Of a stretch of 64,000 nt of DNA, positions 19,759-25,743 are shown one piece after another (position 1 is the stretch's first letter; each line of letters starts with the position of its first letter). The notes under the pieces were generated by a model. The model did not search any database. It saw only the letters and a list, made by a program, of their open reading frames with translations, and was not told the origin of the DNA. Source of the DNA: Escherichia phage Delraymugoa; sequence record OR896825.1. The stretch is one strand, 5' to 3'. A program made the translations under genes and the position numbers.

Positions 19759-20991
19759 TTATACTGCCATTTGAGCGGTGATTGCTGGATGGCTTTGATA
19801 GTTGTGAATTTTAAAGTCTTTCGGAGTCTTTGTCAATACCTCATCTAAAGATTTAAATTCCGGCAACTCAATCGTTGGTTTATCAAACGGAACACGGCTT
19901 AACTGTTCCATAACTTGATCAAAATGGTTTTTGTAAATGTGAGTATCTCCACCAGAGAAAATCAGTTCTCCTACCTCAAGATCACACATTTTCGCTATGA
20001 TGTGAGTTAACAGCGCATAGCTGGCGACGTTAAAGGGCAAGCCTAAAAAGCTGTCTACGCTTCGCTGAAACCACATACAAGACAGTTTACCTTCATTGAC
20101 GTAGAATTGCACGAAAGGATGACATACACCCAATACAGCATTATGTGTTCCTTGTACGTTCCATGAGTCAATAATGATCCGGCGATCCGTTGGATTGTTT
20201 TTAATTTGTTCAATCACGTTTTGTAACTGGTCTTCCCAAATCTTCGGGCGATAGACATATTCTTCATCGTCTTTAGTGCTCGATGTGTCTACGTCCATAC
20301 TAGCAAAGATCGTGGTATCTGGCGCTAAAATATCCCCGCCCAGATAATCACTATCAAGCAGATAACCGAAATAACCATCATCTACCCATTCCTGGAATCC
20401 CCACAAGCAATATGCATCATTAACAAAATTAGATTGAGTCTTCCAGTGGTCTGCTACTAAGAATTGATTATATTCAGAATCAAACTCTTCATAACGCATA
20501 CCACGCCAGATAGCACATAAACGGTCTTCTGTGTCGTTGGTTGGCGTAAAGTCTTCTACCCACGGGTGTTTAAATGTATGTGTATATTTGCTCTTAACGC
20601 GCTTAATTTTGATTTCACCATGTGGATGAATCGGTTTGCGTCGCCATGCCATACCATACATATTACCGACATTATAACCATTGAATCGCAAAGGATTCTT
20701 TTCTTTCATATCAAGACAGTTGCCGCGCCAAATATCAAAGGCTTCCTCGTCAAACTTGCCACGTGTAATTTCCTGTAAGCGACGACGGTCAAGTGATCCC
20801 TCCATAAACCATAGCAATTCGCCAATTACAGAGGCTGTAGCCATCTTTTTAGTGGTCAGTAAGGGGAAACCCTTGCTTAAGTCAATTCGCATTTCTGCAC
20901 CGAATTTAGAGAGCGTACCTACCCCCGTTCGGTCTTCACGAGGCCAACCATTATCAAGAACATCACGCAACAGTTTCAAATATTCTTTCAT
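19759..20991 (-). CDS. td: thymidylate synthase with ~120-aa internal insertion
   Basis: conserved CHPFVQFYV, LSCMWFQRSVD, FLGLPFN (Asn = dUMP specificity); 410 aa vs 264-286 typical. Confidence 0.9.
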   Translation of the reverse strand: MKEYLKLLRDVLDNGWPREDRTGVGTLSKFGAEMRIDLSKGFPLLTTKKMATASVIGELLWFMEGSLDRRRLQEITRGKFDEEAFDIWRGNCLDMKEKNPLRFNGYNVGNMYGMAWRRKPIHPHGEIKIKRVKSKYTHTFKHPWVEDFTPTNDTEDRLCAIWRGMRYEEFDSEYNQFLVADHWKTQSNFVNDAYCLWGFQEWVDDGYFGYLLDSDYLGGDILAPDTTIFASMDVDTSSTKDDEEYVYRPKIWEDQLQNVIEQIKNNPTDRRIIIDSWNVQGTHNAVLGVCHPFVQFYVNEGKLSCMWFQRSVDSFLGLPFNVASYALLTHIIAKMCDLEVGELIFSGGDTHIYKNHFDQVMEQLSRVPFDKPTIELPEFKSLDEVLTKTPKDFKIHNYQSHPAITAQMAV

Positions 20992-21232: not shown

Positions 21233-21324
21233 TATTGTTCCCGTCCGCAATGTAAGCACCGACTACCAGCAAACATCAAAGATTCACCACAATGTTTGCA
21301 CTCATAATCTGTCAGAATTTTCAT
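21232..21324 (-). CDS. mini zinc-ribbon peptide (30 aa), not in ORF track
   Basis: hand translation MKILTDYECKHCGESLMFAGSRCLHCGREQ (CxxC-N10-CxxC); RBS AAGAAGG. Confidence 0.35.
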   Translation of the reverse strand: MKILTDYECKHCGESLMFAGSRCLHCGREQ

Positions 21325-21325
21325 G

Positions 21326-21895
21326 TTACGCCTTCTTACGTTCTAAAATTTGTTCGCTGATCAGGTAATTATCAAGGAAGTAATTATGTTCTTCTTTGGT
21401 TACAAAGTCAAAATATAATTCCTGAATCATTTCCTTAGAGATACCAACATCATATTCAAATGGATCGTTGATCCCTGAACGTTGAACATACGTTAACACA
21501 ATACGGTCCGCAAAGTCAACCGCTTTTTCAATCAGGGAAGGTCCGCCGATAACACTTACCAAACCTTGCGTTTTCTCTAGGACTTTTAACAGATCCTTTA
21601 ATTCAATTCCAGTATACACATTAGGCTGGTCGCCGTTTTTGGCTTTAGGTGTCGGCTTGCTGGCATCGGTACTAATAACCACATTAAGACGACCTTCCAG
21701 TGCTTTAGGCAGACTTTCAAAGGTATTACGTCCCATTACAACCGCAGCAAGTTCAACATCTCCCATAGTGCGCATTTTAAAGTTTTCCATGTCCTTTTTG
21801 ATTGGACGACCCCACGGTAAACCGCCTTTAAAACCAAAAGCCCAATTTTCATCTGACATTTTAGTGTCACCAATCGCAAATACACATTGAATCAT
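21326..21895 (-). CDS. frd: dihydrofolate reductase
   Basis: FGFKGGLPWGRP motif as T4 Frd; 189 aa; adjacent to td. Confidence 0.8.
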   Translation of the reverse strand: MIQCVFAIGDTKMSDENWAFGFKGGLPWGRPIKKDMENFKMRTMGDVELAAVVMGRNTFESLPKALEGRLNVVISTDASKPTPKAKNGDQPNVYTGIELKDLLKVLEKTQGLVSVIGGPSLIEKAVDFADRIVLTYVQRSGINDPFEYDVGISKEMIQELYFDFVTKEEHNYFLDNYLISEQILERKKA

Positions 21896-21910
21896 AATAT
21901 AAATCTCCCA

Positions 21911-22240
21911 TCAAATCAGTTTGAAATAGTTTTCGTTTACATTTTCTTCTGTGATTGCTGTCTTAAATTCTTGACCGTTATCCGGTGTGATGAAATAACG
22001 GTCAGAATAATCACGAAAACGTTTTAAGTGAGATACCCCAACATTAACACCATTTTCCCAAAAACGAAAGGTAATCATTTTTGGTTCATATCGATAGTCG
22101 CTGGTTAACACAGTACCATCCCCGCGACGGGCTTCATAAACCGTAATACATTCACGATTAGCGGCTTTAAGGCATTCTTCAATAGTGCCGCACGAGATAA
22201 TACTTACTTTTTCATCTACGATTTGTTCTACAGTCCACAT
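21911..22240 (-). CDS. hypothetical protein (109 aa, start trimmed to MWTVEQ)
   Basis: RBS GAGAGGA before ATG 22238-22240; track start lies in promoter -10. Confidence 0.45.
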   Translation of the reverse strand: MWTVEQIVDEKVSIISCGTIEECLKAANRECITVYEARRGDGTVLTSDYRYEPKMITFRFWENGVNVGVSHLKRFRDYSDRYFITPDNGQEFKTAITEENVNENYFKLI

Positions 22241-22271
22241 AATATAATCCTCTCTTTGTTTCGATATGTGC

Positions 22272-22299
22272 ATTATACACTATTGCGTTACGCTGTCAA
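22272..22299 (-). promoter_or_regulatory. early promoter TTGACA-N16-TATAAT
   Basis: revcomp 22294-22299 TTGACA; revcomp 22272-22277 TATAAT. Confidence 0.55.
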
Positions 22300-23916
22300 C
22301 TCTTTTTCAAAAGATTTTACGATATACATGATAGTGCTCAATTCAGACGGCGCTACTGTTTCTGTGTAGCCGTCCGGCATATCTTCTTTCGAGATATAGG
22401 AAGTTTTACCTTTCATTGCTTCCTTGATCTTGTTCTCTAATTCTAGGATCTTTTGACCGTCTTGTAAAGTCAATTCATAAAAGATCTCGTGGTCGAATTT
22501 GGAAAGGCGAGATTGACCTCCAATTCGTTCTTTTGTTGTTCTATTGGTTATTCCAAATTTAACGCCTACAAATATTTTTTCTTTTATTAGTTTTTGAATA
22601 TACAATACTCCTTTTTTTAAGGTATTATATCCATATTGTGCGCATTTAGGACAACGAGTTCCTTTCTGAAAGTTTGTTATTGTCGGTGTAAATTCATGGC
22701 CTTCACTACACACCAAATTTAACTTTGTAGACACACCGTTCCATTCTCCAATAAATCCATTAAATACGATATTTTCTTTTTCGAAAATTGGTTTAAGTCT
22801 TTCAAGATATTCTTCTTTTGATAATGCATAATTATTTGCACATTTAGGACAACGAGTTCCATTCTGAAAACTGGATATGATAGGAGTGAAATTGTGGCCT
22901 TCACAACACACCAAATCCAATTTTGTTACGTTACCTTTCCACTCACCAACGATTCCATTACAGGTTATATTTTCTTTAATAAATATCGGTGCTAATTTTT
23001 CGAAATATTCTTCCTTTGGAATCAATTTACGTTCTCTTAATTTAAGAGCTTTACATTTCGGACAGCGGCGACCTTGTTGAAAAACTGCTATGCTCGGGGT
23101 GTAATTGTGTTTTTCATTACACACTAAATTCAGCCTAGTTCTGCTACCTTTCCACTCACCAACGATTCCATTACAGGTTATATTTTCTTCAACGAAGATT
23201 GGTTTTAATCTTTTAAAATATTCTTCTTTTGATATTTTTCTACTGTTTCTCCAGTTGATAATACCGCAGGTCGAACACCTATTACCGGATTGAAAACCGT
23301 TTACAGTCGGTGTAAATTCATGGCCTTCACTACACAATAAATTCATTTTTGTTGTGCTTCCGTTCCATTCTCCAATAAATCCATTAAATACGATATTTTC
23401 TTTTTCGAAAATTGGTTTAAGTCTTTCAAGATATTCTTCTTTTGATAGTAATTTCAATTCTCTTAATTTAAGAGTTTTACATTTAGGACAACGACTTCCG
23501 ACCTGAAATGCTGTTATCGTCGGAGTAAATTCATGATCCTCACAACATGTTAAGTTTAGTTTTGTGTGCACGCCTTTCCATTCTCCGACGAATCCATTAA
23601 ACTTTATATTTTCCTCAATAAAGATTGGTTTAAGTTTTTCATAATATTCTTCTTTTGATAGGGCATAATTATTTGCGCATCTAGAGCATCGTTTACCTTT
23701 TTGAAAATCTGATATTCTTGGTGTAAATTCATGTCCTTCACAACAAACCAAACCCAATTTTGTTACGTTACCTTTCCACTCACCAACAAATCCATTAAAT
23801 ACGATATTTTCTTTTTCGAAAATTGGTTTAAGTCTTTCGTAATATTCCAATGGGCTAATCGAGTTATAATTTTTCTTAACCCATTCAATCTCATGCGCCT
23901 TACGTACCAACATCAT
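22288..23916 (-). CDS. tandem Cys/His (zinc-ribbon-like) repeat protein with possible GIY-YIG/T5orf172-like C-terminal domain (542 aa)
   Basis: six ~67-aa repeats KEEY.E.LKPIF.EENI.FNGFVGEWKG..TKL.L.C.EGHEFTP.I..FQ.G.RCPKC; C-terminus GVLYIQKL...FVGVKFGITNRTTKER; RBS GGAGGA before ATG 23914-23916. Confidence 0.6.
   Translation of the reverse strand: MMLVRKAHEIEWVKKNYNSISPLEYYERLKPIFEKENIVFNGFVGEWKGNVTKLGLVCCEGHEFTPRISDFQKGKRCSRCANNYALSKEEYYEKLKPIFIEENIKFNGFVGEWKGVHTKLNLTCCEDHEFTPTITAFQVGSRCPKCKTLKLRELKLLSKEEYLERLKPIFEKENIVFNGFIGEWNGSTTKMNLLCSEGHEFTPTVNGFQSGNRCSTCGIINWRNSRKISKEEYFKRLKPIFVEENITCNGIVGEWKGSRTRLNLVCNEKHNYTPSIAVFQQGRRCPKCKALKLRERKLIPKEEYFEKLAPIFIKENITCNGIVGEWKGNVTKLDLVCCEGHNFTPIISSFQNGTRCPKCANNYALSKEEYLERLKPIFEKENIVFNGFIGEWNGVSTKLNLVCSEGHEFTPTITNFQKGTRCPKCAQYGYNTLKKGVLYIQKLIKEKIFVGVKFGITNRTTKERIGGQSRLSKFDHEIFYELTLQDGQKILELENKIKEAMKGKTSYISKEDMPDGYTETVAPSELSTIMYIVKSFEKELTA
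22629..23862. repeat. six tandem ~200-bp coding repeats within 22288..23916
   Basis: near-identical DNA repeats (antisense track ORFs 22877..23080 and 23105..23293 share LPFHSPTIPLQVIFS). Confidence 0.7.
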
Positions 23917-23943
23917 TTTATCCTCCGTTGTTTCGATGTGTGC

Positions 23944-23971
23944 ATTATACATTACCACATAAGCATGTCAA
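23944..23971 (-). promoter_or_regulatory. early promoter TTGACA-N16-TATAAT driving the repeat-protein gene
   Basis: revcomp 23966-23971 TTGACA; revcomp 23944-23949 TATAAT. Confidence 0.55.
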
Positions 23972-23995
23972 CACCTTTTTCATAAAATTTTATGC

Positions 23996-24022
23996 AATAA
24001 AAAAGCCTCCCCGAAGGGAGGC
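23996..24022 (-). terminator. rho-independent terminator after gene 32
   Basis: hairpin GCCTCCC-cgaa-GGGAGGC then UUUUUUAUU on minus. Confidence 0.7.
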
Positions 24023-24033
24023 TGTAAAATTCA

Positions 24034-25008
24034 TTACATCGCTAACAGAGAGTCCAGGTCATCCAGATCAGAAGCGGAGGAAGTACCGCCACCCAGATCC
24101 AGCGATGCCATCAGGTCATCAGCGGAAGAATCTAACGCCGTGCTAGCTGCGTTAATACCAACTACAGTGCTAGCTGCGGTAGTACCAGCATCGAATGCAT
24201 TCATCTGTGCGTCAAAATCGTCAAGCTGGCTGTTAATCGCTGCCGCAGCACTGGAAGCCGCAGCACCAGCTACCATAGACACACCCATAGTTTTCTTAAA
24301 TTTGGTTTCCAGTTCATCGAACGGTTTAAACTGGCTAGGCGCTACAATCTCACCCAGATCAACCATGTTTTCCATCAGATATTTCTGATATGCTTCGTCT
24401 TCAATTTTCGGAAGCTGTGATTGCTGCATGAAACGAGAATCATCATAGTTCTGGTGTTTATCAACCTTCTTAGCTTTCAGGAGGAAGTTAGCACCGGAGA
24501 ACACACAAGTTACATCTACCGGAACTTCGCCCATGTCGGTATTCACGTTCACCATCGCAACAATCTTATCGTAAATTTTCTGACCGAAGCGGAATTTGAA
24601 TACCTTACCTTCATTTTCTGGTGCTTGAGGATCTTTCAGTACCAGAATGTTTGCGTAGTAAGACGCTTTACGCTTAATCAGTTGCCATTCGGTTTTATCG
24701 GTATTGTACAGGTCTTTTTCGTTAATATATTTGCACACAGGGCAAGAATCAAAATCACCGTGGGTGCTGGAGCAGTTTTCCCAATACCATTTGCCATTAA
24801 CTTTGAAGGAATGGTTTACCAGTTTCACAATCGGCAGACCGTCTTCTGTCTTAGACGGCAGGAAGCGAATCAGGGCTTCACCGTTACCTGCTGCATCAGT
24901 CTTAATCTTCCACTCTTTCGGATCTTCTTTGGAGAAACCGTTGCCACCTTTCAGTGCGGCCAGTTGAGCTTGCAGTTTGGAAGAATCTTGGCGTTTAAAC
25001 ATATTCAC
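24034..25008 (-). CDS. 32: single-stranded DNA-binding protein (gp32)
   Basis: [29 protein letters not shown] zinc site, acidic C-terminus; strong match to T4 gp32. Confidence 0.9.
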
Positions 25009-25062
25009 TATTCCTTCTTTTGATTGATTTACTAGACTATTATACAGATTTAAATTTACTTG

Positions 25063-25743
25063 TCAACTATTTGTTTCGGCTTTTAATTGAGATATTTCTT
25101 TACACTCTTTAACTACTTTAACAAATAATGCTCTTGCTTTTGCGGCGTCAATAACAAGTAGTTTCTTGTACGCCTTCATTTTAACACTATAAGTTTGCCA
25201 AATCAAGTCTTTGGCTACCTTGTCGTGTTCGTCGATTATATTTAGAAAGCTATCTAACAACATAAACGACTCAAACGATATAATCCGATTTTGCAGTAGT
25301 TTAAAAATACCGCTTGTTTCGGTTGCGGGATTGTATGTAATTAGATCTTTAAGAGTAACCCCGCGTTTCTCGGAGAAGTATACCAGACTTTTAATGTCAT
25401 CGTCAAATCGTGTTGCTGCATCAGTGATTTTACCGATGTACTCCATGTAAAACCCGTATGCGTCAACATCGGTGATTTCACCTACCCATGCATCGGTATT
25501 AGCTACCAGATTGCTTAGGAATAGGAAGTATAATTCTCTTAGATTGTACTTTTCCGCTAATTTTGCGAAATAATACTTATCTCTGCGTTTATTGAATGCG
25601 GCATCAGACAACCGCATCCTCCAATTGTATTTTACGCAATCATAACGCCCGTTCATGTGAGCTTTCATCATGCAATATAACATATACACAGATTTAGCAT
25701 TAATTCGCATATCTGGATCTGGAGGAAGACGGTTTCTGATCAT
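25063..25743 (-). CDS. 59: helicase loader gp59
   Basis: KSVYMLYCMMKAHMNGRYDCVKYNW and FKLLQNRIISFESFMLLDSFLNIIDEHD match T4 gp59. Confidence 0.85.
   Translation of the reverse strand: MIRNRLPPDPDMRINAKSVYMLYCMMKAHMNGRYDCVKYNWRMRLSDAAFNKRRDKYYFAKLAEKYNLRELYFLFLSNLVANTDAWVGEITDVDAYGFYMEYIGKITDAATRFDDDIKSLVYFSEKRGVTLKDLITYNPATETSGIFKLLQNRIISFESFMLLDSFLNIIDEHDKVAKDLIWQTYSVKMKAYKKLLVIDAAKARALFVKVVKECKEISQLKAETNS

Follow-up and report, generated by a model that had tools for sequence, protein, structure and literature searches.

Homing endonucleases that combine a T5orf172 domain with repeated CapR, DUF723, or DUF4379 zinc fingers are a common class in phages, and a beads-on-a-string logic, recombination between their degenerate repeats, swapping of domains, and six-repeat genes have all been described for them (Barth et al. 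2023, PMC10448857). The T5orf172 domain falls within the GIY-YIG superfamily of endonucleases; the T5orf172 protein Odn cleaves DNA in vitro, for which a conserved Glu is needed (E180A is inactive), and it provides experimental proof that such a domain cleaves next to a site held by a fused binding domain (PMC8263062). For the finger half of these proteins, electrophoretic mobility shift assays and Cys-to-Ser mutants of the PLE satellite repressor CapR showed that its conserved cysteines are needed for DNA binding, and CapR was recognized as a homologue of the domains found at the N termini of putative ICP1 phage homing endonucleases (PMC8096241). In RB49 and phi1, modules are shuffled through promoter-early stem-loop (PeSL) cassettes, and recombination between these accounts for genes gained and lost (Arbiol et al. 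2010, PMC2839356; Comeau et al. 2014, PMC4122927). Here, we analyze a 64,000-nucleotide (nt) stretch of Escherichia phage Delraymugoa (OR896825.1; "the window"), in which a minus-strand gene at 22288..23916 encodes six CapR-type zinc-finger units followed by a nuclease-type C-terminal domain. This gene is probably a free-standing T5orf172-class (GIY-YIG superfamily) homing endonuclease gene (HEG) of an RB49-like, T4-type coliphage of the genus Krischvirus. An earlier reading of the window, made from its letters alone (the sequence-only reading), had not recognized the architecture, but tandem CapR-type fingers joined to T5orf172 had already been described (PMC10448857, PMC8096241).

Zinc fingers and the C-terminal domain

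The sequence-only reading had pointed to repeated Cys...His...CxxC modules encoded by a DNA tandem repeat of about 200 bp, and this is borne out at both the DNA and the protein level. The gene contains six tandem units of 63 to 71 amino acids (aa), whose DNA copies are spaced 198, 213, 213, 213, and 198 nt apart in a repeat search of the window; Tandem Repeats Finder likewise reports periods of 198 and 213 in the array. A GEW[KN]G motif recurs at aa 45, 111, 182, 253, 324, and 390 and a CxxC motif at aa 77, 143, 214, 285, 356, and 422. The units had been called near-identical, but they share only 51 to 79% of their amino acids and 63 to 81% of their nucleotides in pairwise comparisons, built around an invariant skeleton (EY..L.PIF..ENI..NG..GEW.G..T...L.C.E.H..TP....FQ.G.RC..C). 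The predicted zinc ligands, C-x3-H and C-x2-C (two knuckles), are kept in six of six units; in relatives, the first knuckle is CxxC or CxxH.

All units lie on the minus strand. Unit 1, of the CapR homology/treble-clef type with ligands Cx3H...CxxC, occupies 23662..23859 (aa 20 to 85) and is followed by unit 2 (23449..23661, aa 86 to 156), unit 3 (23236..23448, aa 157 to 227), unit 4 (23023..23235, aa 228 to 298), unit 5 (22825..23022, aa 299 to 364), and unit 6 (22636..22824, aa 365 to 427), which adjoins the nuclease domain. Profile searches placed the repeats in zinc-finger families above their gathering cutoffs: the Pfam CapR homology domain PF21817 matches in six stretches (E = 3.3e-31; 107.7 bits against a cutoff of 24.2), one repeat unit alone scores 31.3 bits against the same 24.2-bit cutoff, and DUF4379 ("probable treble clef zinc finger") scores 55.2 bits against a cutoff of 24.5. 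A match to PHROG 681, "endonuclease," has an E value of 4.9e-113. In a first structure model, built for unit 6 plus the C terminus from a 9-sequence alignment, unit 6 was predicted with a per-residue confidence (pLDDT) of 82 to 87 as a helix, two strands, and a short helix, with the two ligand pairs flanking the segment after the second strand; the nuclease part of that model reached a pLDDT of only 41 to 59 and was not used for fold searches. By its likeness to PLE CapR, the six-unit array would bind DNA in a sequence-specific manner. Neither the repeat nor the nuclease domain has a paralogue elsewhere within the 64-kb window.

The nuclease domain comprises the last 115 aa of the protein (aa 428 to 542; 22291..22635, minus strand) and is of the T5orf172/MUG113-like type. 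When 1.84 billion representative proteins were searched exhaustively with a profile of this domain, 576 relatives were found at E ≤ 0.001; in 150 of the 150 matches listed, from proteins of 96 to 621 aa, it ends at the C terminus or within approximately 20 residues of it. Among 47 diverse members of the family, 28 match MUG113 (PF13455; best E, 1.8e-6), 18 match T5orf172 (PF10544; best E, 7.4e-7), and 4 match GIY-YIG, and the homologue from phage J-01 passes the T5orf172 gathering score (20.5 bits against a cutoff of 20, over profile positions 10 to 97). Eight residues that are invariant in 147 homologues are all present here (Y439, K453, G455, R464, E494, G516, E519, and T520), including catalytic-type residues.

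An AlphaFold2 model of the C terminus, based on an alignment of 47 sequences, has a pLDDT of 97.3 and is arranged strand-strand-helix-strand-helix-helix, a predicted beta-beta-alpha-beta-alpha-alpha order that is that of the GIY-YIG superfamily fold. Y439 falls in strand 1, R464 in helix 1, and E494 in helix 2, and from this topology they would be equivalent to the corresponding residues of solved enzymes. Foldseek comparison of the model with viral models (BFVD) gave 88 matches at E ≤ 0.001, labeled CapR homology, GIY-YIG, homing endonuclease, or T5 Orf172. The overlap of the family with MUG113, T5orf172, and GIY-YIG, together with the predicted fold, therefore leads us to conclude that the C terminus belongs to the GIY-YIG superfamily as a divergent domain of the T5orf172/MUG113 type, Lys taking the position of the second Tyr. 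The resemblance to T5orf172 and GIY-YIG that had been noticed from the letters is thus upheld through the company the domain keeps and through its modeled fold, rather than by a Pfam match of its own sequence: Pfam and NCBIfam scans of the C terminus itself gave nothing, and it is the homologues that match the three families.

Repeat number and divergence within the array

Tandem repeats are prone to misassembly, and single-repeat alleles of 196 aa exist, so we asked how far the six-copy array might be an artifact of a gene with only one to three real repeats; an artifact collapsing to one unit was an outcome that the sequence-only reading had itself named as fatal to its proposal. The units differ from each other at 19 to 37% of their nucleotides. 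No exact repeat within the array exceeds 88 nt (22736-22823 in unit 6 and 23360-23447 in unit 3), the next being ≤51 nt. Moreover, the independent isolate Escherichia phage JEP8 (MT764208) carries the same six units in gene JEP8_086 (541 aa), with 16 substitutions and no indel over 1,626 nt. Taken together, the shared array, the divergent units, and the short exact repeats exclude an assembly artifact. The 16 differences comprise 9 synonymous and 7 nonsynonymous changes, a dN/dS of roughly 0.25 on small counts.

The 88-nt identity of units 3 and 6 amid units that are otherwise 63 to 81% identical suggests recent gene conversion between units. Most units in the window have another unit of the same array as their closest relative, with unit 6, the closest to most of the other five, acting as a hub, and the two-unit block formed by units 1 and 2 is 77% identical to that formed by units 5 and 6. 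The within-array kinship, the exact tract, and the two-unit block together indicate unequal crossing-over and gene conversion inside the gene, and the sequence comparisons point to these two processes as the way in which the array probably evolves.

To place six fingers among related proteins, fingers were counted upstream of the C-terminal domain in 156 proteins that carry it, i.e., the 150 matches listed above and six from another search. Zero, one, two, three, four, five, six, and seven fingers were found in 9, 32, 32, 43, 22, 11, 5, and 2 proteins, respectively; six fingers are in the upper tail of the distribution and are not unique.

A polymorphic slot between gene 32 and frd

The region at 21300-25100 of the window matches RB49-like T4-type coliphages of the genus Krischvirus (64 matching phage records), the closest being JEP8 (97.8% identity over 100% of the query). 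The minus-strand order is gene 59 (25063-25743), gene 32 (24034-25008), the endonuclease gene, a frd.1-like open reading frame (ORF), frd, and td. The ORF is as the sequence-only reading described it and does lie between frd and gene 32, with the small frd.1-like ORF intervening on the frd side. Comparison of this interval among relatives, which that reading had recommended, shows presence/absence and allelic polymorphism at one site in close relatives, with precise boundaries. PHB13 has nothing in the slot, and in MIZ6 it is occupied by an unrelated ORF of 109 aa that lacks a Pfam match (locus L004, 1497-1826); Cognac has this 109-aa ORF (locus L012, 1297-1626) beside a 405-aa allele with four fingers. 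GEC-3S and Skers carry alleles of 392 aa with four fingers, RB49 one of 485 aa with five divergent fingers, W115 one of 338 aa with three fingers, and JEP8 and the Delraymugoa window the 541- to 542-aa alleles with six. P0001 and similar proteins from genome and metagenome collections are putative alleles of 196 aa with one finger. The C-terminal domain is at least 80% identical in about 22 of the 64 matching records; more distant relatives of it occupy the same slot in Sf20 (50%) and Whisky (42%), and similar ones are present in the genomes of MIZ4 and MIZ5. In RefSeq, the genes of RB49, GEC-3S, and Phi1 in this slot are labeled "endonuclease."

The boundaries of the insertion are formed by promoter sequences. 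An early sigma-70-type promoter of the gene lies at 23944..23971 on the minus strand (TTGACA-16-TATAAT, 12/12 consensus positions; a promoter is annotated at the same place in GEC-3S), and a second early promoter, also 12/12, lies at 22272..22299 on the same strand, where it runs over the gene's 3' end and stop codon and is predicted to drive the frd.1-like ORF, frd, and td. Both had been proposed from the letters alone, and both are confirmed at these positions. Each promoter is part of a direct repeat that also covers the 5' untranslated region (UTR), with an upstream copy at 23928..23990 and a downstream copy at 22256..22318; the copies are 73% identical over 63 nt, and their core 24-mer occurs only at these two sites within the window. 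In the empty site of PHB13, homology breaks at window positions 22282 and 23909, and 46 bp, from the −10 box to the Shine-Dalgarno sequence, are present as a single copy that matches both flanks of the insert, the flanking sequence being 96.8% identical up to there; a direct repeat of the promoter/5' UTR thus marks both ends of the insert. On the upstream side, a stem-loop terminator after gene 32 (24004..24023, minus strand) precedes the promoter and makes up a PeSL-like cassette with it; the downstream side has a promoter with no stem-loop.

A 3' segment of the gene (22291..22500, minus strand) shows 93 to 100% nucleotide identity between alleles whose arrays are quite unlike: the last ~210 nt match RB49, W115, GEC-3S, Skers, and Cognac at this level, and identity collapses upstream, inside the nuclease domain. 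From this pattern, the segment is a likely recombination anchor. At the other end, the promoter, the leader, and the first 9 to 12 codons are common to the alleles, RB49 excepted. With conserved sequence on both sides, the array plus the opening half of the nuclease domain behaves like a cassette that can be exchanged.

These observations can be joined into a mechanism for a mobile endonuclease gene. The gene would be transcribed early from its own consensus promoter, and the six CapR-type modules, arranged like beads on a string, would jointly bind a long DNA site. The GIY-YIG-type C-terminal domain would then cut nearby DNA in coinfecting relatives that lack this allele, and recombinational repair would carry the gene, along with its flanking markers, over into the cleaved genome. 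The array would change by unequal crossing-over, gene conversion between units, and exchange of cassettes between alleles, the last being anchored 5' on the promoter/leader and 3' on the conserved nuclease half. The sequence-only reading had suggested a site-specific homing-type nuclease with a binding array; the domains and the polymorphism of the locus agree with that suggestion, and the function itself is the part that we infer.

Several points weigh against homing as the explanation. By its own sequence, the 115-aa C terminus matches no Pfam or NCBIfam family, even at E ≤ 10, so the family assignment is transitive and structural. A profile search of PDB sequences finds no match for the domain, phmmer against the same sequences yields only chance matches, and Foldseek comparison of its model with the PDB is not significant (best E, 1.2). 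Lys stands where the canonical YIG motif has its second Tyr (K453-F-G455 for Y-I-G). For every allele at this locus, cleavage of a target and homing are putative, and PeSL/promoter-mediated recombination by itself, with no nuclease action, could have spread the insert.

HEGs often degenerate after fixation, and the gene could be an inactive, decaying remnant whose repeats expanded neutrally by slippage or unequal crossing-over. In favor of this, its own sequence falls under all Pfam nuclease thresholds, and truncated relatives of 115 to 141 aa are found in metagenomes. However, the 542-codon frame is open, all family-invariant residues and the C, H, C, and C ligands of every unit are present, the 3' half is nearly identical across alleles, and the JEP8 orthologue is intact, with the low dN/dS given above. 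With frame, ligands, and invariant residues intact, it is very unlikely that the gene has decayed to a relic.

Also unlikely, though less so, is a domesticated HEG-derived protein that benefits the phage, either as a nuclease against competitor, satellite, or host DNA, as Odn is, or as a DNA-binding regulator resembling CapR or the I-TevI autorepressor, with six fingers tuned to its target. Such co-option of T5orf172 and CapR domains is known from ICP1 and PLE, the early promoter is strong, the gene is intact in two independent isolates and under mild purifying selection, and the flanking promoter/5' UTR motif, found only twice in 64 kb, is a candidate binding site. Against this, a search of 5,426 complete E. 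coli genomes for an Odn-like source of the array (satellites included) found no DNA homology to the gene, and Odn-type chimeras differ in having a binding domain that matches a gene of the satellite. The endonuclease gene is also dispensable, being absent from PHB13 and MIZ6 and variable among very close relatives, which is a pattern typical of selfish HEGs, and a pure repressor role is unlikely since the nuclease residues are retained. The anti-defense protein that the sequence-only reading had offered as an alternative found no evidence in its favor, including in these E. coli genomes.

A more ambitious version of the homing endonuclease reading is that Krischvirus maintains a natural programmable-nuclease locus driven by recombination, in which the constant half-nuclease and the promoter/leader serve as a dock for exchangeable arrays of one to seven CapR-type fingers, each finger reading a short subsite in register, as in engineered zinc-finger nucleases. 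We regard this as improbable, on a par with domestication. If it were true, array length and order would set the length and identity of the target, and the variable positions of the units would form a readable recognition code.

Turning to the details of the gene and its neighborhood, the coding sequence (22288..23916, minus strand) specifies 542 aa plus a stop codon and is preceded at 5 to 8 nt by a GGAGGA Shine-Dalgarno sequence. The adjacent ATG at 23913, used in JEP8 and relatives, would give 541 aa; the mechanical ORF is longer (22288..23958) and opens at an upstream GTG, but the Shine-Dalgarno sequence favors ATG 23916 or ATG 23913. The N-terminal leader (MMLVRKAHEIEWVKKNYNS; 23860..23916, minus strand) includes the 9 to 12 opening codons common to most relatives' alleles, other than that of RB49.

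Gene 59 was identified by its Pfam T4_Gp59_N/C match. The Ala/Ser-rich C-terminal tail of gene 32 contains a 21-nt direct repeat (24140-24160 and 24167-24187; 90% identity, 27 nt apart). In Skers, an annotated HNH homing endonuclease gene (locus L011, 3622-3860) lies on the far side of gene 32, in the place that gene 59 takes in the other relatives examined; some relatives may have a nuclease gene to either side of gene 32. The frd.1-like ORF (21911-22240, minus strand) separates frd (21326-21895, minus strand) from the endonuclease gene. Its true start is ATG 22240 (MWTVEQ...), as relatives annotate it, the mechanical start at 22273 falling within the −10 box of the downstream promoter; its protein has no Pfam match. 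The td ORF (19759-20991, minus strand) encodes 410 aa, the length annotated in RB49, JEP8, and MIZ6, and matches Pfam Thymidylat_synt in two stretches (the best, 254 to 410, corresponding to profile positions 110 to 266); the split match indicates an in-frame insertion of roughly 125 aa in td.

Comparison with known systems

Among viral mobile elements of T4-type phages, the T4 Seg proteins and I-TevI are likewise free-standing or intron-borne GIY-YIG nucleases with a beads-on-a-string layout. They too are expressed from an early promoter or one of their own, and they are known for homing and marker exclusion near essential genes. In T4, SegG adjoins gene 32.

The arrangement of the Delraymugoa locus also recalls the PeSL cassettes of RB49 and phi1, in which a stem-loop terminator and a strong early promoter upstream and a second promoter copy downstream bracket a variable gene (PMC2839356, PMC4122927). 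It differs from them in that a stem-loop is missing from the downstream copy, which extends over the end of the coding sequence, and in that the bracketed gene itself encodes a predicted nuclease that could drive its own spread. The gene 32-frd locus is not discussed in the PeSL paper (PMC2839356).

PLE CapR (PMC8096241) shares the homologous zinc-finger domain PF21817; it has one such domain and no nuclease and represses the capsid genes of ICP1, whereas the Delraymugoa protein has six domains and a nuclease domain. The origin-directed nuclease of ICP1, Odn (Gp88), shares with this protein a nuclease domain of the T5orf172 branch, with the Arg and Glu conserved (Barth et al. 2021, PMC8263062). 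The binding domain of Odn is a RepA_N domain copied from its satellite target; for the Delraymugoa array, such target-derived homology was not found in E. coli genomes.

The closest counterparts are ICP1 gp174 and gp165 and the six-repeat genes of Vibrio phage Helene (PMC10448857), which have the same N-terminal tandem CapR-type fingers and C-terminal T5orf172/GIY-YIG domain, degenerate nucleotide repeats, recombination of units, domain swapping between alleles, and a free-standing position beside essential genes. The main text of that study makes no mention of RB49-like phages (PMC10448857). Unlike the ICP1 and Helene genes, the Delraymugoa gene resides in a T4-type Krischvirus, in the gene 32-frd slot, and its nuclease is too divergent to be assigned by Pfam alone; the first zinc knuckle is Cx3H here and CxxC there. 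The gene is a further member of this known class and not a new kind of enzyme, and it adds a T4-type (Krischvirus) example to a class so far studied mainly in vibriophages. What also sets it apart is that one genus holds an allelic series of one to six fingers on an almost invariant nuclease 3' half. Together with the empty site, this series (empty, 1, 3, 4, 5, and 6 fingers) at one locus in easily grown E. coli phages offers a convenient way to learn how the target specificity of this nuclease class depends on the number and order of fingers and how such genes mark recombination boundaries beside gene 32.

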